Below are positions 3,175 through 19,290 of a stretch of 19,617 bases of DNA, in pieces. Numbering within the stretch: the stretch's first letter is position 1; every line of letters starts with the position of its first letter. The translations under genes and the position numbers were made by a program. The DNA comes from Amoebidium appalachense (Eukaryota; Protista; Ichthyosporea). Under the pieces are notes generated by a model. The model searched no databases. It saw only the letters and a program-made list of their open reading frames with translations, and was not told the DNA's origin. The DNA is taken from assembly GCA_963693365.1 (NCBI GenBank), contig CAVNZM010000067.1, positions 1 through 19,617 on the forward strand, in the 5' to 3' direction.

Positions 3175-3576
3175 TTTGATTGGTCGACTAAGTGGCATTC
3201 TCTTTTGATTTGTATTTGAATTGATCGGTCTTGATTTATTTGTTTCTTTTCTCTTTTAGTTTGTATTTGAATATACTCGGTCCAAGTTGATTTGTTCTTT
3301 GTAATCTGACTAGACTATCATGTACGTACGTACTCTTTTTCTATACAATCACTTGTGTTCATATTAAAGGATTCTGTGTACGTGGACCACGGAAACATAC
3401 ACCATTTTTTGCAGTGCTTCATGCTATAAAATAACCATGAGAGACACAAACAAATACACTAAGTGTGTACACGTCTACCCATAGGCCCAAGTGTTGACAT
3501 GTCTGCCCACAGTTCCCTAAGGCTTAAAGCACACATCTGCCTGTATGCCATAAACTTTACTTTCACCACAAGACAC

Positions 3577-4560
3577 CCACCTAAGTACACTCTGCACCAC
3601 CCTAAGTACACTGTGGTGCACAGCCCCACCCTAAGTACACGTCTGCACCACCCTAAGTACACTGTGGTGCACAGCCCCACCCTAAGTACACGTCTGCACC
3701 ACCCTAAGTACACTGTGGTGCACAGCCCCACCCTAAGTACACGTCTGCACCACCCTAAGTACACCTCTGCACCACCCTAAGTACACGTCTGCACCACCCT
3801 AAGTACACCTCTGCACCACCCTAAGTACACCTCTGCACCACCCTAAGTACACCTCTGCACAGCCCTAAGTACACCTCTGCACCACCCTAAGTACACTCTG
3901 CACCACCCTAAGTACACCTCTGCACAGCCCTAAGTACACCTCTGCACCACCCTAAGTACACGTCTGCACCACCCTAAGTACACCTCTGCACAGCCCCACC
4001 CTAAGTACACCTCTGCACCACCCTAAGTACACCTCTGCACAGCCCTAAGTACACCTCTGCACCCACCCTAAGTACACTCTGCACCACCCTAAGTACACCT
4101 CTGCACCGCCCTAAGTACACCTCTGCACCACCCTAAGTACACCTCTGCACCACCCTAAGTACACCTCTGCACAGCCCCACCCTAAGTACACTCTGCACCA
4201 CCCTAAGTACACGTCTGCACCACCCTAAGTACACTCTGCACAGCCCCACCCTAAGTACACTCTGCACCACCCTAAGTACACTCTGCACCACCCTAAGTAC
4301 CTCTACACCATCCTAAGTACACGTCTGCACAGCCCCACCCTTTAAGTACACGTCTGCACAGCCCCACCCTTTAAGTACACGTCTACACCATCCTAAGTAC
4401 ACGTCTGCACAGCCCCACCCTTTAAGTACACGTCTGCACAGCCCCACCCTTTAAGTACACGTCTGCACCATCCTAAGTACACGTCTGCACAGCCCCACCC
4501 TTTAAGTACACGTCTGCACAGCCCCACCCTAAGTACACTCAATGTTAAGTACACCTGCAC
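3577..4560. repeat. ~1-kb minisatellite of roughly 40 variable 21-29-bp units, consensus CCACCCTAAGTACACCTCTGCA
   Basis: TAAGTAC core recurs throughout. A 51-bp higher-order unit lies near the left end and CCCTTTAAG variants at the right end. Confidence 0.95.
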
Positions 4561-6727: not shown

Positions 6728-7030
6728 ACGTCCAAGCTTGATGAAAACAAACCCGTGGCTGCTAACCATTGGCCGGGTATAGATCTAACCAAAAAAGGAA
6801 GGCACAACAAATTAGTGCCCTGCACACGGAGCATGCCTATAGGCTGTTTAGACACCACACGTGTAGGGCACTGCCTCTTGGCACCAACCAGAAGAGGGTA
6901 GAAATCAGTGCCCTGCACACGGAGCATGCCTATAGGCTGTTTAGACACCACACGTGTAGGGCACTGCCTCTTGGCACCAACCAGAAGAGGGTAGAAATCA
7001 GTGCCCTGCACACGGAGCATGCCTATAGGC
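6728..7030. repeat. Right inverted repeat: 81-bp unique arm plus ~2.3 copies of a 93-bp variant of the 92-bp unit
   Basis: GTGCCCTGCACACGG at 6815, 6908 and 7001 (period 93). The array ends abruptly at 7030. Confidence 0.95.
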
Positions 7031-7310
7031 AGTGATGGGGTGAGTAGGATGAGTAGCTTGAGTACCTACTCATCTGGTCTCCCCCCGGGTGTTCCAATTT
7101 CCTTTTGGATTGAGATTTAGGTATACCCGTAGCCCACAGTAGATGAGTACGTACTCATCCTACTCATCCTACTCACTATATGACAATTGCATATTTTTAT
7201 ACCTAAAAAGGAAACCTTTACCATATTTGGTCGAGTAACATCTAGTGTGGGACACTTGTCTGTGTTACTCAGAATCAGTACCTTGAGTAAGATAATTATT
7301 GTTACTCAGT
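7030..7310. mobile_element. Possible DNA-transposon (hAT-like) terminus with GAGTA/TACTC subterminal motifs
   Basis: Starts CAGTGATGGGG at the point where the 93-bp array is cut. It has a 17-bp inverted repeat (7040-7056/7160-7176), an 18-bp perfect palindrome (7142-7159) and about ten GAGTA/TACTC motifs. Confidence 0.4.
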
Positions 7311-7568
7311 GCAACAAGTTTCAGGTGACGTGTATCTGCTTATACTTATATATATATATATCCTGAGTGTAGGGCTGGCTCCCTAATGGACACTCCAAAC
7401 CCACATATTTGTAACAATATTATCGACCATAATCCCAACGCACACCAGACATGTGCTCCGATGACTCCCTGGCTGTGGACCTCCTTATATTCACATGCTG
7501 CGCCATCCAGGGCACAGTTGCACCTTCACCGGCAGTCGCACACACACACGCACTGCGTGATACCTGCA

Positions 7569-8087
7569 TTATTCTCTACACTGCCGCCTATTTTTCTGTA
7601 CTGATTCATATAACTGCAGCGACAGAATGTCGCACCCCATGTCATGCCAAAGGAAGTCCTTCAAAAAGTCGATTCGCAGAAGGGTTGTTCGTTTTCTCTT
7701 TGCCTCCATGGGGACAGCTCGTCCCTCGCTCATGCCCTCCTCCTCCGTCGGATCCCTCGGTGGCAGCAGCGACAGCGTGGTGTCCCAGCGCTCCCAGGTC
7801 AGCCGAAACGACTTGCCCCAATCCAGGTCGATGGTCACCGCATCCCCGGCCCCCTCCAGTGGACACGTCGAAAACACCAGGTGGTTGAGTCCAGTCCTGT
7901 TCGACGTTTCCACCGACTGCAGCGGCAGCATCGTGTCCGACAGCATCGTGTCGCCCTTGCCGAGTCTTGCGTGGAGCTGTAGCGGCCGGCTTGCCACCCT
8001 CCCGGCGCCGTTCGAGTCGAACGTCATGTTGGATACAAGCAGCGACAGCCGATTGACAAATAGCTTCAGGTCCTGCTCAAAAGCCAT
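7569..8087 (-). CDS. Hypothetical protein (172 aa)
   Basis: ACCATGG start (MAFEQDLK...), with TATAAAAG on the minus strand at 8139-8146. No recognisable domain. Confidence 0.65.
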   Translation of the reverse strand: MAFEQDLKLFVNRLSLLVSNMTFDSNGAGRVASRPLQLHARLGKGDTMLSDTMLPLQSVETSNRTGLNHLVFSTCPLEGAGDAVTIDLDWGKSFRLTWERWDTTLSLLPPRDPTEEEGMSEGRAVPMEAKRKRTTLLRIDFLKDFLWHDMGCDILSLQLYESVQKNRRQCRE

Positions 8088-8637
8088 GGTCGGTTCTGGT
8101 GCAGATTCAGACTGGCAGCTCCCCGTGTCAGACACACGCTTTTATACCCTCCAGAGTCCCCGCCTGCGTCGGCGCACACTCATTCGCAAGGTGCCAGTTC
8201 TCGAGGCGCTGCATGACCACGAGTGCGCGCTTGCGTGTTTCGGCGTGTGTGTACGTGGGCCCGACACGGTGTGTGAGGTGCTGAGCGTGCGCTGTTGCAC
8301 AAGCATGTGGACCGCAGGTGTGCGACCGGGAGACATTGTGGTGGCGTGCGAGATCAAGCGCGCAGAATCCGGGTGGCGCAAGGTGTCCCTCGAGCTCGAG
8401 GAGGGTGCGTGGACCAGCAACCTGTGCGCGGCTGGGTGCAAGCGGAGAAAGTGGTTTCACAGGGGTTGTGCAGGGCAAGCGCCCAAAATTTTGGGGTAGA
8501 GGTCATGCCAAAACAAGGAGGTCAGTCCAAAAAGAGGGGTCACAGACGTGCAAGGAAGTACGTGTTTGCCAACGAGTTCATGCCAAAATACCGGAGGCTG
8601 GTGATCCTCCAGAGCGTGCGAGTGAAGCGTAAATGAG

Positions 8638-9919
8638 TTATTGTTTGGTTTCTGCGTCCATCGGATTGGTTTTCGCTTTAAACGGAGCCAATAGCCTCTC
8701 CATATCTTCCGACGAAACTAGCCTGCTGTACAGCACGCCAAGGTCTTGCGTCACCTCGTGCCAATCATAGAACAGGTACCCCATGCGGATGCGCCCGTCC
8801 TTGAACAGCGCGACGTAGTCTGTGTCTCGCACATGTCTGATGGCGACCGTGAGTGCCTCGAGCCTCTGCTTCATTGGAGCTCTGTGTTTTGCTGTCGACC
8901 TTGAATCCGTGTGGGTTGAACCGAATAAACATGGTCGGCACTTCGTGCGCAGATGCCTGGTTGAACATCCGCGCAACCTCACACGTGGTGTCATAAGCAC
9001 GGTGTTGGTCCTCGTCTACCTCTACAACCAGCACAAAAGTCCCAAAGTCGTAGTACAGATCCGGACGAGTGCGCTCTCCACAATCGTTTGGTACTACTTT
9101 GTCGTGGCTGGTGGGGGGGCCTATGAGGCCTGACACATGACGCAAAACCTTGATTTCTGGACGCGCCTCGGACCACTTGGCTCTACATGTGGATTGTGGG
9201 TCACAAGTGGCGCACAGATTTCCCCTCTTCTTCACGTGTGTCAGTGTGCACGCGGCGCAGAAGTAGCTCAGGTCACATAATCGGCAAAATATCTTCCGCT
9301 TCCCATGGTGGCAGAGCGCTGTGCCTCCACAAAACACACACCGCGCTTTTTGTTTTCCATGTTTGCAGTACCTTGTGCCCCCACACGACCTACAGTCAAA
9401 CTTGGTCTTACCATGTTTGCAAATCGCCTTTCCGTTGCATTCTTTACATCGGTCTCTCCGTTTACGATGTGGGCAGAGCGCTGGCCCTCCACAAAGCCCA
9501 CAGTAGACTTTACATTTGCCATGTTTACAAAAGCTCCTCCCACCACACCGTCTGCACCTGGCTTTCGGTTTCCCATGCGGGCACAATCCTGATCCACCGC
9601 ATGACTGGCAGAAGATTTTGCGTGCTCCATGCGGACACAGCTGCGATCCGCCACACCCCTTGCACAGAGGCCTATATCGACCGTGCGGGCACATTTGCTT
9701 CCCGCCGCAAGGTACGCAGATATATTTGCGCCTGCCGTGGGGGCAAAAGGTTGCCCCGTTGCATGCTTTACAAAAACTCCTCTTCTTCTCATGTGGACAC
9801 AGAGCAGATCCTCCACAGGTTTTGCAGTACCCTCTCGGTTTCCCGTGCTCGCATTTTCTGGTCCTAGGGCTGGGTCGGGGCTGCCTTTCGACCATACTGT
9901 CAATGTTAGCAGATGCCAT
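8638..9919 (-). CDS. Cys/His-repeat (11x18 aa, CxH-x6-CxxC) protein fused to a PD-(D/E)XK/Vsr-like endonuclease; one frameshift at 8887-8890
   Basis: The repeats are followed by RPDLYYD...VVEVDEDQH..Y...CE..RM...FIRFNP. The expected family tail (RL..L...I...YLFYD) lies in the 8638..9000 frame and joins at an A4 run. Confidence 0.8.
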
Positions 9920-10329
9920 TCTCGTTCTTAGTGACAGAAAATATTGAAACCTAGCAAGGCATTGGTTGGCCGCGATTAGATGCTAAATATATCTGACAGA
10001 CCTGTATGGACGCGGTTATGAAATTTAAGCGCGTGGGTGGTCTTGAGAATCGCCCCGCATCCAGTGCGTGGACCAGCAACCTGTGCCCGGCAGGGCGTAA
10101 GAGGAGGATTATGGTTTCACTAGGAGAGGTCGCCCACAATTTTTGGGTGAACGTCATGTCAAAACGAAGAGGTCGGTGTGCTGGTGTACAGGTGGTAGGG
10201 GGGGGGAGTATGTAATTTTTATTCCTGGGCCGTACCAGGAGGACTTCACACGAGGGTTTACACACTTTTTATTCCTGGGCCCGACAGTCCGATGAGCCAT
10301 CTCAAAGCACTGGCATGGCATGACCGTAG

Positions 10330-10530
10330 CGCCATTCGATTGGATATCTCGCTAGATTACGCCTCACGCGCTGATTGGTCAGCCGCGATTGGATCGTAAA
10401 TATAAATTCCGATTGGATCATGTGGTTACATCTCATGGTAAGTAAATTTTGATTCCATCAGATAAATCATGTCCATCCAATCAAAACGCGACAGCTGTCA
10501 GCCTTGCCCTGCCTGGCAGGTATAAAATGC
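10330..10530 (+). promoter_or_regulatory. CCAAT cluster and TATA box upstream of 10586
   Basis: GATTGG near 10338, 10373, 10387 and 10411, CCAATC at 10477, TATAAAA at 10521-10527. Confidence 0.65.
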
Positions 10531-10585
10531 CGCGACTCAGCGCTATGCTGACACTTTCCACTCTTCCTGTTTCTCTTCACCAACA

Positions 10586-11062
10586 ATGTCCGGCACACCA
10601 TCTGCAAAGGCCGGCCCTGACCCAGCCGGGCAGCCTGCCAGTCCACGGCCCCCAGGGTCATTTGCCACGTGGCCTCCCGAATGGCAGCAGTACCTGTACG
10701 AGGAGGCAAAGCGTGACCGCTACCGTGCGCGCGCCAGCGAGCGGGAGATGCAGCTCAAGTACAAGTTGCTGCACAAGAAGTACAAGCGCCTCAAGACCAG
10801 CGTGAGCCTGTACCGTATGACATGGAGGAGCCTGAAGAACCTCAGCGACCCCGAGACCTCCGCCGAGGAGTCCCCCACCGAGGAGCGCCCCATTCGCATC
10901 TTGAGCTCCGAGGAGGAGCGCCTCCACAAGAAGCCCCCCGAGAAGAAGCGCGCGCGGTCGCCCGAGGACACTTCGGCGCCCACCGAGAAGAAGCGCGCGC
11001 GGTCGCCCGAGGACACTTCGGCGCCCACCGAGAAGCGCAGCCGTGCTGGACACGAGGAGTAA
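10586..11062 (+). CDS. Small basic helical protein with NLS-like KKRAR repeats (158 aa)
   Basis: ACAATG start and high GC3. A 45-bp tandem duplication encodes EKKRARSPEDTSAPT. AATAAA overlaps the stop (11062-11067). Confidence 0.75.
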   Translation: MSGTPSAKAGPDPAGQPASPRPPGSFATWPPEWQQYLYEEAKRDRYRARASEREMQLKYKLLHKKYKRLKTSVSLYRMTWRSLKNLSDPETSAEESPTEERPIRILSSEEERLHKKPPEKKRARSPEDTSAPTEKKRARSPEDTSAPTEKRSRAGHEE

Positions 11063-11402
11063 ATAAAAATTGCCACTTCCACTTCCACACCTGTGTTGTG
11101 GACCGTAGCGCTTGCATGCATGGTGCTGCTCGTGCTGGCGTGCTGGCACTCAGGGGGGGGGGGGGGGTCTTGTTGTTTGTGTTAATGCACCCACAGCGTG
11201 CCCTTTGTGACACTTGCAGTGGGTTGTTGTTGTTGCCTTTTACAACCACCGCTCTGGACACAAGATCGAACAGCTATCAAATTGACCATATATATGACAA
11301 AGAAAAACAAGGTTGCCAAAGATCATTGTAGCAGTGCGTCCTCCGTCTTGGCGCGCCCTACGTCCCAGCGGTTTTTAGGTTCCATTAGCACTGCGATGCA
11401 TA

Positions 11403-11720
11403 ATGTCTGTGTGTGCTCCCCGAGTTGCTGGGGAGGGGGCGCTCCAAACTATCTCTTCGGAAGGTATGACTTCTCCGAACATTGCAAACCTGAGATTTGA
11501 CAACCCGAGTAACTCGTGGTTGCGCAGGGATGACATTGCCGACGACCCGCACGAGTACCACCTGACCATCGACAACAACACGCGCTTCATGCTCTACATG
11601 GGCACTTCATTGGACGACCATGATGCACAGCTCAAGAGCGCTTCGATGTGGAGGGGCATAGCGCTTGCATGCATGGTGCTGCTCGTGCTGCTGGCCGGCC
11701 TGCTGGTGTACAGGTGGTAG
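11403..11720 (+). CDS. Small protein with a C-terminal transmembrane helix (tail-anchored type); the start may be 11466
   Basis: GIALACMVLLVLLAGLLVY at the extreme C-terminus, GC3 bias. Confidence 0.6.
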   Translation: MSVCAPRVAGEGALQTISSEGMTSPNIANLRFDNPSNSWLRRDDIADDPHEYHLTIDNNTRFMLYMGTSLDDHDAQLKSASMWRGIALACMVLLVLLAGLLVYRW

Positions 11721-11887
11721 GGGGGGGGGGGTGGGGGGGGGGGGGGGGGGGCACTATGATGGATTGTTGTTGAAGCCGTTGAACCGTTGAGGTCCGCGAG
11801 ATCACCCCACACACACACAGCCCGTCACACTTCTATTTTAAACAACCCCCCTTCAACAGCTTCAACAGCTTTAACTCTTCAACAGGG

Positions 11888-11895
11888 TATAAAAG
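11888..11895 (+). promoter_or_regulatory. TATA box TATAAAAG upstream of the helicase
   Basis: GGGTATAAAAG lies ~45 bp before ATG 11937 and has the same context as the TATA at 8139-8149 (minus). Confidence 0.6.
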
Positions 11896-11936
11896 GAACA
11901 TGCATGCTTTTTTTTCTTCAGTCTACTGTAAGCATC

Positions 11937-13388
11937 ATGAGAGCTCCACCATCTTATGATGCATTCGAAGACCTTTCGGTTGACCATAGCATGTTGTTTG
12001 ACCCCCACACATGTGTTCAACGCGCAAATTGGACTTTGGATGAGGTGTTTGCCTTTTTAAGCCCAAACATCGCATATGTCAGCAGGGAAGGTGCCTATCT
12101 GGTCAAGATTTATGACCAGGACACGAACCTGTACAAACACCATCGCAAGACAAAGGCTGCACTCCAAGAGTTTTTGGGAGCCTTTCTATTTCAGCTTGTT
12201 CCGCATGCAAACGGCAAACAGGATACGTACAACGGTGCAAACGTGTTGAAAACACCTTGCTTTCCATACTACACCTGTTTTGTTTTTGACCCGTCATCCC
12301 CAGACCCACGCACTGGAAACACGAAGCCAGCATACCTTGTCCCACGTTGCCGGGCATACAACATGTTCAAGGGATTGGCGCTACCCCACCAACCCGAGAA
12401 CGTTTCTTGGCAGTCAGGTTCTGTCTCCCTGTTCGAACGCCACGCCTTTGAGGTGCTTTGCAACAATGACCGGGAGAGCTTTCATTATCTGATGCAATGG
12501 GTCGCACACATCTTCCAGTATCCTGAAGTCAAGTCTGGCACAGCGATTCTCATGAGATCGATACAGGGAATAGGGAAAAACATCTGGTGGGAGATCATCG
12601 CCAACATCATTGGCAGTTGTTATTGTGGTTATATCACACACAGAGAGCATTTGGAGGGGAAGTTCAACGCGCATCTGGAGAACAAGCTACTGGTTGTGTG
12701 CGACGAAATGGGTCTTGGCAGTAACAGGGAAATTGCGAACCTGATGAAGGCTCGCATCACCCAGCAGGTGAACATGATAGAGCGAAAGGGGCAGGACGCT
12801 GTGTGTGTGAAGAGTTTCGAACGCTATGTCTGGCTTTCAAACGAGAAATGGCCCGTTCGGGTGGAGGAATCGGACCGTCGTTGGGTGTGCTTGCAGGGGA
12901 CCCCAGTGGTCTATCCAAGAGCCTACTACCAGAACTTTACACGGTTTTACGAAGACCCTGCAAACCTACAGGCTGTCTGTGACTACTTCATGAAGATGCC
13001 AAATGTTCCCCGTGTTCTTCCGCTTCCACCCAAGACTGAACTCTGGTGCGAACTGCGTGAAATGACACAGCCAGATGAACTCCTGTTTCTCAAAGATATG
13101 GCTACAGGCGCCGAGGGCATGTCTGTCGAGCAACTTCCCAATGGGGCCCGTGTTACAGCCACCACAATGCTGCATCTGTACAAGGAGTGGCTTTCACTCA
13201 ACGGCAAGACCAAGAGCATCCCGTACGCCAGTGTGAAGAGCATGGGCTCCATGCTCAGCAAGATACTTGGACCCAACAAGGGAGTGCGAAACAACCACCT
13301 GATTGTTGCCCCTGGGATGCCCGCGTTGTCCCCAACCGGAACGTCGTACGCTTTTTTGTTCGACTACGAGAAGATCAAACAGGCTTAG
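11937..13388 (+). CDS. Superfamily-3 (D5/NrS-1-like) helicase, 483 aa, with probable winged-helix C-terminus and no evident primase domain
   Basis: Pre-ATPase YNMFKG...VLCNND...YLMQWVAHIFQYP..KSG, Walker A SIQGIGKN, FN..LENKLLVVCDE (Walker B), IERKGQD, motif C VWLSNE, and SDRRW. Confidence 0.88.
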   Translation: MRAPPSYDAFEDLSVDHSMLFDPHTCVQRANWTLDEVFAFLSPNIAYVSREGAYLVKIYDQDTNLYKHHRKTKAALQEFLGAFLFQLVPHANGKQDTYNGANVLKTPCFPYYTCFVFDPSSPDPRTGNTKPAYLVPRCRAYNMFKGLALPHQPENVSWQSGSVSLFERHAFEVLCNNDRESFHYLMQWVAHIFQYPEVKSGTAILMRSIQGIGKNIWWEIIANIIGSCYCGYITHREHLEGKFNAHLENKLLVVCDEMGLGSNREIANLMKARITQQVNMIERKGQDAVCVKSFERYVWLSNEKWPVRVEESDRRWVCLQGTPVVYPRAYYQNFTRFYEDPANLQAVCDYFMKMPNVPRVLPLPPKTELWCELREMTQPDELLFLKDMATGAEGMSVEQLPNGARVTATTMLHLYKEWLSLNGKTKSIPYASVKSMGSMLSKILGPNKGVRNNHLIVAPGMPALSPTGTSYAFLFDYEKIKQA

Positions 13389-13399
13389 CCATTCCCCAA

Positions 13400-13540
13400 C
13401 GCTGCGCGGGGGCATGGGGGGCTGGGGGTGGCTGGGGGTGGCACACAGGGCATGGGGCCGGGGAGGAAGAGGAGGCACAGTGGTCTCACGGGCAGCACGA
13501 GGCAGGCGAGCCACGCATGCCCCTCACAGCCCCTCAGGAA
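13400..13540. repeat. GC-rich quasi-palindromic intergenic repeat, copy 1
   Basis: GGGGCATG (13409-13416) pairs with CATGCCCC (13516-13523). The 20-mer AGGCACAGTGGTCTCACGGG at 13473 is identical to 17433. Confidence 0.7.
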
Positions 13541-13613
13541 CCAACAGATGCTAGCTATAGGGGGGGGGGTACTTAAGCAGACCCGGGTTCATTTTCTCCC
13601 CATTCTTTCTACA

Positions 13614-14114
13614 ATGGACAACATGGACGATCTATACATGCAGATCGCCGCGGACATGTCCGAGAACGAGCAGCGCAAACTGGCGACATACGAAGAGTTT
13701 GAGCGGACAACAGGCACGCGCAACAACTGGTTGGACGCAGACATTGTCGAGAATTACGAGTGGACCGAGGAGCAGATCCACACGTTCTGTCGTACACTAG
13801 TGGCTTATTCCCGCCCGGACGGTGTGTACCTCTTCAAGCGTTTCAAGGATGGGAGATTCGTCCATGAGGTCAAGTCCAAGAAGAAGGTGGCCGACATGCT
13901 GTCCAAGTACAAGTTCAAATACAACCCGACGGGCAAAAAGGTGGAAACATACAAGGGCTCATGGCATCTGGACAGCAGCCAAATGGTCGTCTACGACGGT
14001 GGTATTGTTTTCGACCCCAGCGACCCCGACCCCAAGACCCGTGTCCGTAACCAGCGATACACGTCTACCCACAGCCGTACGTTCAACACTGCGGGGGCGC
14101 CTGGGGGGCCCTGA
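13614..14114 (+). CDS. Stand-alone paralog of the helicase N-terminal domain (166 aa)
   Basis: WTEEQIHTFCRTLVAYSRPDGVYLFK matches WTLDEVFAFLSPNIAYVSREGAYLVK, VFDPSDPDPKT matches VFDPSSPDPRT, and RTFN matches RAYN. ACAATGG start. Confidence 0.75.
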   Translation: MDNMDDLYMQIAADMSENEQRKLATYEEFERTTGTRNNWLDADIVENYEWTEEQIHTFCRTLVAYSRPDGVYLFKRFKDGRFVHEVKSKKKVADMLSKYKFKYNPTGKKVETYKGSWHLDSSQMVVYDGGIVFDPSDPDPKTRVRNQRYTSTHSRTFNTAGAPGGP

Positions 14115-14190
14115 GGGGCATGCGAGGCACGCGAGGCCCGCGAGGCACGTGTGCCACGGGAGCCACCCACAGCCCCTCAAGCCCTCACTG
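14091..14190. repeat. GC-rich quasi-palindromic intergenic repeat, copy 2
   Basis: TGAGGGGC (14112-14119) pairs with GCCCCTCA (14172-14179). Internal (GCGAGGC[A/C]C)x3. Confidence 0.75.
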
Positions 14191-14244
14191 GTATGCACAG
14201 CATCGGGTGTCGTGGCTTGTATATTTTTTCTAGCGCCAACTACA

Positions 14245-14940
14245 ATGGCTAGCACGCTGTGTGACGAAGGTTTGGTGAGGGACCGACTTATGCGACTGGA
14301 GGGTGGGAAGAGCGAGGTGCATACTCCCGCCGGTAGGATCGACCTGCTGACGGACACAGAAGTCATTGAAGTAAAGAAGGTTCAACGTTGGAAATCGGCA
14401 ATGGGGCAGGTGCTTGCATACACAGATTACTACCCCACCCACCGTGCACGAGTCCATCTATATGGCTACGCCCCCGCCAACACATACAAGGTAGCTGTGG
14501 AAACCATGATGCGCCATAACATTACCGTCACCACCGAGCATGATACACTGCAGCATATGTGGGGTCCACTCGCCAAAGCAGAAACTGCAAAACCCAAGAA
14601 TGCCCAGCAGAAACAAGCCGAACAGCAATTTTTAAAAGATTTGGTCTCTCATACCAATGGATGTGAGGACATGACTTTCATAAAGGATGACTGCCGCGTG
14701 ACTTCATCTGACCTGTACCAACTATACCTTTCGTGGCATAAACGGAATACTTCTAACACAGCTACTCCAAGTTTGAAAATCTTTGGCGTAAACCTCAGGA
14801 AGATTCTGGGAAAACCTATCGGCGTCAAAGCAAAAAGGGTGACGCGCTGGCCAGACCACCCACGTGTGTCTGAAACAAACAATGTTCTGTATTGCTACAG
14901 GATCGACAGCCAGGTCATTAACAGCCAGGAGCAGTCGTGA
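14245..14940 (+). CDS. PD-(D/E)XK nuclease fused to a helicase-type C-terminal (winged-helix-like) domain, 231 aa
   Basis: N-terminus EVHTPAGRIDLLT..EVIEVK....WKSAMGQVLAY. The C-terminal EQQFLKDL, RVTSSDLYQLYLSW and SLKIFGVNLRKILG match helicase ELLFLKDM, RVTATTMLHLYKEW and SVKSMGSMLSKILG. Confidence 0.8.
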   Translation: MASTLCDEGLVRDRLMRLEGGKSEVHTPAGRIDLLTDTEVIEVKKVQRWKSAMGQVLAYTDYYPTHRARVHLYGYAPANTYKVAVETMMRHNITVTTEHDTLQHMWGPLAKAETAKPKNAQQKQAEQQFLKDLVSHTNGCEDMTFIKDDCRVTSSDLYQLYLSWHKRNTSNTATPSLKIFGVNLRKILGKPIGVKAKRVTRWPDHPRVSETNNVLYCYRIDSQVINSQEQS

Positions 14941-14972
14941 TGGAATTTATTTTCTCCCACTTCTGTAACACA

Positions 14973-15218
14973 ATGTTCCTGTGCACGTGCCGGTCTGACC
15001 GAGGCGCTGTCATGGTCAAGGAGTATAAGGTGTATCGGTGCACAGTCGACGGCTGCAGCTATTTCACCACCCGCAACAGCAACTTTGCCGCGCACAGCGA
15101 CAAGCACACAGGCGCCCTGCGACACGTGTGCACGCATGCAGGGTGCGGGCGGCAGTTTCGGTATGCTCTGAGCCTCAAGCGGCACACCGCCAAGCACCAG
15201 AGCCCAACCCAAACCTAG
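14973..15218 (+). CDS. Two-finger C2H2 zinc-finger protein (alternative start 14940)
   Basis: YRCTVDGC...F..H...HTGALRHVCTHAGCGRQF.....LKRH...H, with a Kruppel-like HTG linker. ACAATG at 14973. Confidence 0.8.
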   Translation: MFLCTCRSDRGAVMVKEYKVYRCTVDGCSYFTTRNSNFAAHSDKHTGALRHVCTHAGCGRQFRYALSLKRHTAKHQSPTQT

Positions 15219-15305
15219 CGCCCAGGCCCGCGAGGCCCGCGAGGCACGCGAGGCACGTGCGCCACAGGAGCCCCCCCAGGCCCCCAGGCCCCCAGGCCCC
15301 AGCCC
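15219..15305. repeat. GC-rich intergenic repeat, copy 3, between convergent genes
   Basis: GCGAGGCCCGCGAGGCACGCGAGGCACGTGCGCCACAGGAGCCCC, followed by CCCCAGG repeats. Confidence 0.7.
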
Positions 15306-15352
15306 GGATGGGTGACCGAGGACGACAGATATGGACCCGACTCGGGGTGGGT

Positions 15353-16228
15353 TTATTGACGCGCCGCGGCGGCCCAGGCAGCAAACGCCGTGCGGCCATC
15401 CGCAAGCGCCTGCGCGACCTTCCCGGGGTCGACGTCCATGGGCGACGCAAACAGCCTCCGCTCTGGAGCGACCACCACGAGGCGGTCTCCGAGGCGGGTG
15501 CGGAGGTTGGCGAACTCGGTGGCCGCTAGCTCGGTGCCCGAGTCACGCTGCAGAGCATAGCAGAGCTCCATGCCCGTTTTTGGCACGGATTCTGCGGGGC
15601 AGTGCGCCAGCGAGTCGCACAGCACCGTGACGTAGATGCCGTCGAACCCATCTGCGGCATCCTCGAGTGCCTTGGTGAGGGGCACCAGCTCAGAGACCCC
15701 GCCGTCCAGAAACACGGTGCCGTCGTACTCGACGGGGGGGACCGCGAGTGGAAGGGCCGAAGACGCGCGCATGCCGACCTGGTACTCGGGCCCTGTGAAC
15801 CACCGCTCCTTCTTGTTGAGGAAGTCCCAGGCGACGCAGTGGCAGCGCGTGTAGATGTCCGCGTCGATGCCCTCCAGAAGCGCCGCCGCACGCTCCTGCA
15901 GGGTGAAGCGGCTGTACGCCGCCCCGTACAGCATTGACCCCACAACCGTCCTCCAGCTTTTCGGAAGCAGCGCCATTGCGCCGCCCCACGGTTCCACAAT
16001 GTCCTCCACGCACTTCAGCGTCCCCAGCTCGCGCGCCAGGTCGTCCAGGCGGTCGGCAACCACGAACGGCGCCACCAGCGCGCCGACGGACGTGCCGTAC
16101 ACCCTGTCGACCTGGTACAGCCCCGACGCGAGCATCCCCTGCATGAACCCGACTTGGAAGCAGCCCTTGACGCCGCCCCCGGGCAGCAGGATCCGCACAC
16201 GTGTCCTGGCTTGGGAGGGTGTGTCCAT
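15353..16228 (-). CDS. Patatin-like phospholipase
   Basis: GGGVKG oxyanion loop, GTSVG nucleophile, ASSALP and FLDGG catalytic Asp. AACATGG start; AATAAA overlaps the stop. Confidence 0.93.
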   Translation of the reverse strand: MDTPSQARTRVRILLPGGGVKGCFQVGFMQGMLASGLYQVDRVYGTSVGALVAPFVVADRLDDLARELGTLKCVEDIVEPWGGAMALLPKSWRTVVGSMLYGAAYSRFTLQERAAALLEGIDADIYTRCHCVAWDFLNKKERWFTGPEYQVGMRASSALPLAVPPVEYDGTVFLDGGVSELVPLTKALEDAADGFDGIYVTVLCDSLAHCPAESVPKTGMELCYALQRDSGTELAATEFANLRTRLGDRLVVVAPERRLFASPMDVDPGKVAQALADGRTAFAAWAAAARQ

Positions 16229-16260
16229 GTTGATGTAGGGCGCGATAAAAGTCGACGGCT

Positions 16261-17058
16261 TCATTCCAAATCCAGGGCGTTGCACACCGAGACCAGGTTT
16301 GCCCTTGCGCAGTCCAGCACGAAGGCCGCCAGCTCGGAGTAGTCGTGGGGGGGCGGCTGGCTCTGCGCGGCCAGCAGCAGCGAGTGGTAGCGCTCGCGGG
16401 AGCTGCGGTCTGTGTACAACGAGAGAGGAACGGCAATATAGGGCGAGAGCAGCACGCTGACCAACAGACGGGCGACGCGCCCGTTGCCGGTGCTGAACGG
16501 GTGGATGTAGAGGAACTCCCCGAGGAAACGGGCGGTGACCTGTATGGCACCGAGAACGTCATTGCAGCCTTGGAGTTCGGTGCGTGTCCTTTCGAACAGA
16601 CGCTTGAGAGCCTCTTCGATCTTGAACGGTGCAAGGTACTGATGACTGCAGCCTGCGGGAAGCGCAAAGCGCACCCGATACCGTCCAGCGCTATCGAGCA
16701 GCCCGTCCATGACCTTGCGATGGACCTCCCTAGCGAGCTCCACCGTAAACGTGCCCGGATCAATCCCCTTCCAAACCCACGGTGTGGGGAACAGCTCGCG
16801 AACTGCTATAACGACGTTTTTCAGTTTCTTCGATGAGCGCGTGTGTTCGGACGTTTCATCGGGGCAGGAGATCAGCCTCTCAATATGTTCGACTGGGACC
16901 TTTTCGTTTATTTCCAATTCCATCAGGTGCTTGATGTATAACACTAGGTGGTGCGTTGTGTATCCCTGCATGAACAAAGCGCTGCTCTTATCGTTATCCA
17001 AAAACGTGCGCACCAGGTGGAGGCAGCGCACAACCGCCCCTTCGCTGAGTTGAGACAT
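16261..17058 (-). CDS. Fic/Fido domain protein
   Basis: FLYIHPFSTGNGRVARLL, with upstream REVHRKVM....AGRYR. Start placed at the first ATG (MSQLSE), which is uncertain. Confidence 0.9.
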   Translation of the reverse strand: MSQLSEGAVVRCLHLVRTFLDNDKSSALFMQGYTTHHLVLYIKHLMELEINEKVPVEHIERLISCPDETSEHTRSSKKLKNVVIAVRELFPTPWVWKGIDPGTFTVELAREVHRKVMDGLLDSAGRYRVRFALPAGCSHQYLAPFKIEEALKRLFERTRTELQGCNDVLGAIQVTARFLGEFLYIHPFSTGNGRVARLLVSVLLSPYIAVPLSLYTDRSSRERYHSLLLAAQSQPPPHDYSELAAFVLDCARANLVSVCNALDLE

Positions 17059-17213
17059 CACGGTGTTGAACCGACAGATAAAGTACCACAAACTATCAAA
17101 ATCGACCTTTACGTCACACGGCAACAACCCGGCCCATATCCACCTGCGCGTTCACCACCCTGTTCTCCTGCCCCCGCCCCCTACCCAGTCCACCGATTTC
17201 TCCACAAACCAGA

Positions 17214-17394: not shown

Positions 17395-17485
17395 CGGGGC
17401 CTGGGGGGCATGAGGGGCACGCGAGGCACGGAAGGCACAGTGGTCTCACGGGTCTGTGTGCCACAGGCGCCCCCCCAGCCCCCGG
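17395..17485. repeat. GC-rich quasi-palindromic intergenic repeat, copy 4
   Basis: CCTGGGGGGCATGAGGGGCACGCGAGGCAC resembles copy 2, the 20-mer is shared with copy 1, and GTGTGCCACAGG leads into a C-rich tail. Confidence 0.7.
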
Positions 17486-18972: not shown

Positions 18973-18997
18973 GGGCTGAGGGGGGGGGGGGGGGGGA

Positions 18998-19141
18998 GGT
19001 TGATGGGGTGGTGTTAGCATAAGCTAGATGGGGGTTGGTTTGATGGGATGGTGTTAGCATGAGCTAGATGGGGGTTGGTTTGATGGAACGGTGTTAGCAT
19101 GAGCTAGATGGGGGTTGGTTTGATGGGATGGTGTTAGCATG
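18998..19141. repeat. 40-bp tandem repeat, ~3.5 copies, after a G17 run
   Basis: GGTGTTAGCAT at 19010, 19050, 19090 and 19130. Confidence 0.9.
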
Positions 19142-19290
19142 GGAGGGCTTGGAAGTTGTTTGATGTGCTTCCGGGAGAAGTTCATGCACGAAATAAACCA
19201 AGTATCTGTGTATCATGCTGCTTTTTTGAATAAAGCAACACGTCGGTGGTTCTTTCGGGCAATGTTCATACATTTTGATATGTGGCTGTA

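Follow-up and report, generated by a model that had tools for sequence, protein, structure and literature searches.

To our knowledge, simple repeat-to-base readers are rare, and C2H2 fingers and TALEs are the familiar examples acting on DNA. A gene on contig CAVNZM010000067.1 of the ichthyosporean Amoebidium appalachense (assembly GCA_963693365.1; the whole 19,617-nt stretch analysed is called the window below) raises the question of whether another such reader exists in nature, as it encodes eleven 18-aa Cys/His repeats followed by a nuclease-like domain. An earlier reading made from the sequence alone (the sequence-only reading) had proposed a ZFN/TALEN-like modular DNA reader with a possible repeat-to-base code. 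Our analysis leads us to favor, with a probability of roughly 0.63, a free-standing homing endonuclease in which each repeat would read about 2 bp. The gene and its parts are as follows.

8638..9919, minus strand: repeat-array nuclease gene, running from an ATG at 9919 to a stop codon at 8638-8640 and broken by a single frameshift in the window
9263..9856, minus strand: eleven 18-aa CxH-x6-CxxC repeats, head-to-tail, 54 nt each
9203..9256, minus strand: C4 finger between the array and the nuclease, in which C236 and C239 are invariant
8638..9160, minus strand: PD-(D/E)XK / Vsr-like nuclease domain, with its last helix and strand in a second frame
9059-9067 and 9002-9022, minus strand: nuclease motifs RPD and EVDEDQH, respectively
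8875..8885, minus strand: frameshift in the window sequence, near 8879

A 384-aa ORF (9919..8765, minus strand) carries the array, the C4 finger and then RPD..EVDEDQH..FIRFNP. The eleven six-residue inserts listed in the sequence-only reading were all recovered as listed. From repeat 1 to repeat 6, positions 7, 9 and 10 read PGY, KSF, RYI, YPL, RIF and PAR, and from repeat 7 to repeat 11 they read CVY, RDR, TFD, QAR and RIF, while positions 6 and 8 are mostly basic. The core of the proposed scaffold, (L/F)CxH-x6-CxxC(G/N)G, holds in all 11 repeats; its edges do not, since L or F precedes CxH in only 7 of 11 and repeat 11 reads CxxC-DL. All 44 Cys/His ligands are kept, the array is modeled with a pLDDT of 85-94, and the invariant C/H pattern suggests that the repeats probably bind zinc. 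The repeats are diverged at the DNA level as had been claimed (mean identity 51%, best pair 70%), and the RKIF and KAR types do recur, with 50% and 56% of bases identical within the respective pairs. Because the two RKIF repeats share only half of their bases and 2 of 11 codons for shared residues, they are not a recent duplicate. One contig of one run skips 108 nt at 9596-9705, exactly two repeats, which is either a length variant or a graph artefact. The window protein matched no Pfam family, no PHROGs family and not PF19114.

We observed that similarity to relatives in the first frame stops after FIRFNP. As the C-terminal helix and strand of intact relatives were found in a second frame that ends at the 8638 stop, the window contains a frameshift near 8879. 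This break could mark a decayed pseudogene in which repeat variation is mere drift, and the long branch of the nuclease and the contig with two repeats fewer (one run) point in the same direction. However, when contigs of four runs were compared, the frameshift was absent from all three runs that span 8879, one of which has a contig depth of 4.8 and may be the window's own sample, the fourth having no cover there. Therefore, the frameshift is probably an assembly error, and the organism probably carries an unbroken gene. The 44 ligands and the catalytic-type residues are also kept in a gene whose repeats share 51% of their bases, and we regard the pseudogene reading as most improbable. At least 20 runs among those listed contain the region, and no RNA run was listed.

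The architecture is not a product of chance, as 323 homologues were retrieved at E<=1e-3, the best at about 45% identity among the 120 matches listed. In these 120 homologues, the 18-aa spacing is exact in 1061 of 1124 repeat spacings, and entropy reaches 3.0-3.6 bits at positions 7, 9 and 10 and 0.7 bits at position 8. Homologues contain 6-18 repeats, in which the hypervariable positions 7, 9 and 10 are interleaved with basic positions 6 and 8. The sequence-only reading had placed similar proteins in giant viruses and algae, and the relatives that we found are giant-virus genes: atlas neighbors belong to unnamed Nucleocytoviricota clusters, and BFVD matches that bear a name come, at E<=1e-3, from giant viruses. 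Fifteen prokaryotic matches, all on MAG contigs, are probably mis-binned viral DNA. The nuclease motifs occur in about 1200-1400 viral and about 4800 metagenome stretches, other repeat types counted in.

In giant-virus loci L001-L008, this nuclease domain carries longer, EsV-1-7-like repeats; repeats of EsV-1-7-like type are also attached to it at L405-L411, and the repeat type switches several times on the nuclease tree. Compared with EsV-1-7 repeats (PF19114), the nuclease is common to both (L001-L008), whereas repeat length and Cys/His order differ; PF19114 is also present in 2 of the 120 listed homologues. The nuclease of the window sits on a long branch among the EsV-1-7-like rows, a placement in which long branches may attract, and outside the main 18-aa clade from which a code was deduced. 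A search with residues 205-349 alone returned no close relative.

Residues D287, E300, D302, E303 and H306 are invariant in 116 sequences, and the RPD and EVDE motifs, a feature of PD-(D/E)XK enzymes, are invariant across the family. The PD-(D/E)XK-like domain that had been proposed from the sequence is supported by these motifs and by the best fold matches, which are mostly to PD-(D/E)XK proteins and each weak (E>=2.3e-3, Z<5): R2 endonuclease with Z 4.7, I-Bth0305I (3r3p) with Z 4.3 and Hjc with E 2.3e-3. The VIA match to 3r3p (Z 4.3, rmsd 4.5, 68 aligned) and that to Vsr 1cw0 (Z 3.8) stand among unrelated VIA rows. Regarding the EDxHD features, conserved E, D and H are present and the last Asp is unmatched. 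Foldseek against the PDB gave no match at E<=1e-3 for either model (window, intact homologue), and PDB sequence searches returned nothing beyond weak A20-finger matches; profile matches between the C4 finger of the family and A20-type zinc fingers were likewise weak (E 0.13 and 0.017). No solved fold matched the array, though fold searches barely probe it, and for this reason no new fold is claimed.

The surroundings of the gene revealed how it is carried.

8630..9998, no strand assigned: optional slot, with loose contig ends at 8629 and 9999 in 4 of 4 runs
8405..8526, plus strand: left copy of an imperfect direct repeat of about 120 bp flanking the gene
10064..10177, plus strand: right copy of the same repeat

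Other copies share the flanks of the slot and then switch to unlike DNA beyond 8629 or before 9999. Since contigs leave the window at these two points, the slot is optional, and the element in which the gene sits is multi-copy. In the runs, the flanks, the left one included, have a much greater depth than the gene, a depth that does not translate into copy number. Furthermore, some contigs are common with the window at the nuclease end and at the 5' end of the gene and unlike it in the middle (joints 9068-9563, 9125-9898 and 9180-9916), and contigs of this kind attach to other spacers (9950-14115 and 9950-15225). In our reading, they are paralogues that occupy different slots and carry different arrays. 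The two copies of the direct repeat are 75% identical over 124 columns; the repeat has no Rfam match and is not a predicted target of the window array. A single contig of a single run joins 8451 to 10112, with only 30 nt on one side, and is absent from a second contig listing; this joint is too weak to be taken as an empty site, and the four runs yielded no clean allele in which the window slot is empty.

The neighbors in the window include genes for a DUF5906 primase-helicase, a patatin and a Fic protein. No capsid or packaging gene was recognized among the 17 window ORFs scanned, and none of 10 window proteins was found in the protein collection searched. The element looks virus-derived or Polinton-like, of a eukaryote, and it is a member of a mosaic element family.

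Several other features of the window were noted in passing. A 92-bp tandem array of 9.6 perfect copies lies at 757-1639, and an inverted 93-bp version is found 5 kb away at 6728-7033; these arrays could be the ends of the element. Long tandem arrays of 22/29-bp, 33/36-bp and 40-bp units occupy 3574-4540, 2275-2660 and 18980-19165, respectively, and several poly-G runs are present. ORFs 2-457 and 14245-14940 have a common GRIDxLTxxExIEVK domain, nuclease-like in appearance, and the latter shows a faint Pox_D5 match near its end. The DUF5906 primase-helicase region (11787-13388 and 13428-14114) exhibits contig indels near its 5' end and exists in several diverged copies; by eye, 13614-14114 resembles the N-terminal part of the primase-helicase, and one relative is 63% identical. 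A GC-rich spacer is repeated between genes (13448-13492, 14096-14187, 15224-15300 and 17396-17482) and is the point where contigs change neighbors, much like a cassette joint. Segments 7200-8535 (with the unnamed ORF 7569-8135) and 15216-17200 (patatin, Fic) are far deeper than the helicase region, and one run has the 7200-8535 module and hardly any helicase region.

The family lies beside giant-virus core genes. In a first, untargeted scan, a gene for the major capsid protein (MCP) was found within 4 kb for 33 of 69 distinct proteins, and directly adjacent for 21 of them. Among 65 related MCP loci with at least 1.5 kb downstream, 2 have the array nuclease gene downstream, 19 a T5orf172-type gene and 12 an HNH-type gene. 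Orthologues at the same site conserve their residues repeat by repeat. Both the family and the slot of the window display an optional intergenic gene beside conserved genes, a trait of free-standing homing genes. By analogy, the placement of optional nucleases at the side of MCP corresponds to the pattern of free-standing homing endonucleases.

If the arrays guide cleavage of the neighboring gene, their residues should relate to its bases. We scanned 80 geometries with Arg-to-G as the sole prior. A reading of 2 bp per repeat, antiparallel, with position 10 and then position 7, ranked first of the 80 settings (mean z of about 0.9 over 12 groups), and geometries of 1, 3 or 4 bp per repeat scored lower in both the prior-based and the entropy scans. 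With this top register, the arrays of six groups are placed at the very start or the very end of MCP, on its first or last codons. In the training rows, Arg stands opposite G in 191 of 219 instances and other residues do so in 41 of 295, a circular count over rows that are related within groups.

Two further tests are independent of the Arg-to-G geometry fit. At position 7 of repeat 1, Arg co-occurs with a G in MCP in 13 of 13 arrays, and Gln, Val, Ile, His or Ser with an A in 8 of 8; this set comprises 21 of the 22 arrays that lie tail-to-tail with MCP, a truncated one having been excluded. Of these arrays, 12 were added after the pattern had been noticed, and 7 had inner repeats missed by the search pattern, so that six were assumed. 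The covarying MCP column predicted by the register ranked first among 704 variable columns, and the Arg/non-Arg label changes four times on the nuclease tree, three of these changes being forced. Residue entropy also tracks base entropy (rho 0.58, n=48 positions in three groups), the register ranking first of 300. Comparing repeat strings with flanking sequence across homologues, a check that the sequence-only reading had suggested, thus revealed that MCP-adjacent arrays covary with MCP bases. For the family, covariation and entropy match both argue for the modular reader it had envisaged, while of its repeat-to-base code only Arg-to-G is clear. The pairing of fixed residues with consecutive bases, the trait of a modular reader, was found in MCP-adjacent relatives only, as a correlation.

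A codon beside the predicted site provided another line of evidence. In the capsid-adjacent group, every one of the 21 carriers of the nuclease has TCN as the Ser codon lying 2-4 nt 5' of the predicted site. In 73 non-carriers, the same codon is TCN in 34, AGY in 36 and Ala in 3, and this column ranked first of 90. The next Ser codon, used as a control, has no bias, and carriers of start-site arrays have 9 AGY and 5 TCN at that MCP Ser codon. Carriers arise through seven changes on the MCP tree, five of them forced (20 carriers, one short row left out), and three close non-carriers have AGY. A carrier allele that differs at the predicted target, as in homing systems, is seen in this group. The nuclease would lie 5' of the site because the array is antiparallel.

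Other peculiarities of MCP loci were observed. A Thr codon follows the MCP start in 12 of 12 carriers of the ten-repeat start-site group (L383, L382, L044, L169, L170, L168, L380, L172, L056, L060, L071 and L171) and is absent from the other start-site loci listed; it is possibly another immunity mark. The MCP genes of L060, L088, L054, L044, L020, L049, L025, L499, L505 and L509 break at conserved codons, several of these breaks falling inside the predicted site of the capsid group, as if the insertion blocked cutting.

The code did not extend to arrays on which it had not been trained. In leave-one-group-out tests, 3 of 12 groups came out at p<=0.05, a result tied by one 3-bp geometry. The mapping of non-Arg residues is loose (Asn goes with A or C, Gln with A or G), and at nuclease-proximal repeats of two groups Arg stands opposite T rather than G. 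When the learned code was applied to held-out arrays at their own loci, 7 of 101 had a site at p<=0.05, about chance, as did 0 of 8 arrays rescanned singly, 7 of which lie beside or near MCP; the code did not predict the targets of unseen arrays. Judged by eye, L088 and L011 have arrays that fit MCP termini; these fits were rejected as formal scans gave p 0.75 and 0.39, the L088 array having been parsed with a gap. A portable code beyond Arg-to-G is unsupported by held-out arrays.

These failures are what one would expect if the protein were a site-specific homing nuclease whose array forms one co-adapted surface, with no portable code besides Arg-to-G and with repeats that could not be swapped freely. 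The loose mapping of non-Arg residues, the chance-level prediction of held-out targets and the apparent slip of the register at nuclease-proximal repeats in two groups all favor such a surface. Conversely, the covariation of a single residue with a single base across several lineages, and the regular pattern in which variable residues face wobble bases, point to position-wise contacts. The held-out failure may also mean that targets lie outside the scanned 3.5-kb flanks or outside the window, and decay may affect many of the arrays. Together these points make a purely co-adapted surface unlikely in our view, and we retain a homing endonuclease with repeats of about 2 bp each as the preferred reading.

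For the window array itself, no target stands out: the best predicted site in the window has p=0.17 and the flanks p=0.92, and genic sites of the window with G at all 7 Arg positions number 3 for a null mean of 3.4. Candidate sites in the helicase gene (12788, plus strand) and in the Fic gene (16778, minus strand) were rejected as being at chance level, and the helicase candidate found no motif match in the relative L429.

The lack of a target or immunity mark in the window would suit an accessory nuclease cassette, such as an anti-competitor weapon, a cutter of host DNA or a DNA-binding regulator, moved not by homing but by recombination between shared intergenic modules. The element has a mosaic make-up with shared spacers at which paralogues join, and nucleases of giant viruses directed against hosts or rival viruses are discussed in 10.1101/299784. 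In contrast, the arrays of relatives match their own neighbor gene, and a codon mark sits at the predicted cut side, as homing predicts; we consider the cassette reading improbable for the window copy.

Under the preferred homing reading, the array would lie antiparallel on DNA, with position 10 of each repeat opposite the 5' base and position 7 opposite the 3' base of a dinucleotide. Arg would select G, and residues opposite wobble bases would be tolerant. In a relative that lacks the gene, cleavage by the C-terminal nuclease would fall immediately 5' of the site, and repair from the carrier would copy the gene. Carriers would be protected by a silent difference on the side of the cut, which in the capsid group is a TCN in place of an AGY Ser codon. 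For the window copy, the expected target would be some 22 bp long and lie in a conserved gene within its own family of elements. We infer that the protein binds and cuts DNA, that the gene homes and that the code carries over to this distant copy; homing and the antiparallel register come from relatives that are about 40% identical and are presumptive for the window copy. Beyond the sequence-only reading, our analysis adds a likely homing role, an optional slot with paralogous arrays and a frameshift that is probably an assembly error.

How does this design relate to known systems? C2H2 fingers use about 28 aa per 3 bp and bind antiparallel with Arg-G contacts, and TALEs use 34 aa per 1 bp. 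Like C2H2 zinc-finger nucleases and TALENs, the family combines tandem modules, few variable residues and a PD-(D/E)XK fusion, and its predicted antiparallel binding and Arg-G contacts are those of C2H2 fingers. It differs from these engineered nucleases by its 18-aa unit, a putative step of 2 bp and the fact that the fusion is natural.

As described in PMC3239194, I-Bth0305I (PDB 3R3P) is intron-encoded in phages and has two N-terminal NUMOD repeats that bind DNA, followed by a C-terminal Vsr-like nuclease using Asp and His. The bipartite design of N-terminal repeats and C-terminal nuclease is common to both proteins, whereas the window protein has 11 Cys/His repeats, is encoded by a free-standing gene and has no NUMOD repeats. 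Nucleases of R2 retrotransposons and of Holliday junctions match its fold at least as well as I-Bth0305I does, and sequence searches gave no match to I-Bth0305I. The T4 Seg and Mob genes are intergenic beside conserved genes, with a cleavage site away from the insertion and co-conversion of flanks, according to PMC2988022. The family is likewise intergenic beside conserved genes, while Seg and Mob, as described there, use GIY-YIG or HNH chemistry in phage hosts and have no long uniform repeat array. By analogy, the family would work like T4 Seg/Mob genes and be built like I-Bth0305I minus the NUMOD repeats.

Two other mobile elements share traits with the family. In MIGE of PgV/CeV-type viruses, a short non-coding piece precedes a single ORF that contains a zinc-finger motif, and each genome has several copies (10.1101/299784 and PMC4669402). 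The zinc-finger ORF and the multiple copies are alike, and, comparing descriptions only, the passages on MIGE in these two texts mention neither a repeat array nor a nuclease. Yeast WHO genes lie beside a conserved gene, contain zinc fingers and are associated with allele-specific cleavage (10.1101/2020.01.20.913210). In WHO, an intein-like nuclease replaces the 3' end of FBA1, and no such replacement was seen here. Our literature search, which covered parts of open texts including PMC9356565, PMC12477816 and PMC12768974, returned no description of an 18-aa array nuclease; the VSR-like and PD-(D/E)XK intron nucleases of the PMC12768974 supplements might include this family.

A wider proposal, which we put forward tentatively and at somewhat less than even odds, is that the 18-aa CxH-x6-CxxC unit is a third natural modular DNA reader, covering 2 bp per repeat through positions 10 and 7, retuned residue by residue by viruses to their target gene and giving arrays that could be rebuilt at will. 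If so, a reader using 9 residues per base, far more compact than TALENs, would come already fused to a nuclease, and a programmable nuclease of about 430 aa would have a 22-bp address. In the capsid group, the prediction comes down to a named site, a single residue-base pair and a single silent codon. The population of elements to which the window belongs would then form a natural library of nucleases that share one scaffold and have been retargeted, and the same reader would account for the optional nucleases that ring giant-virus capsid genes and for the insertions that split them.
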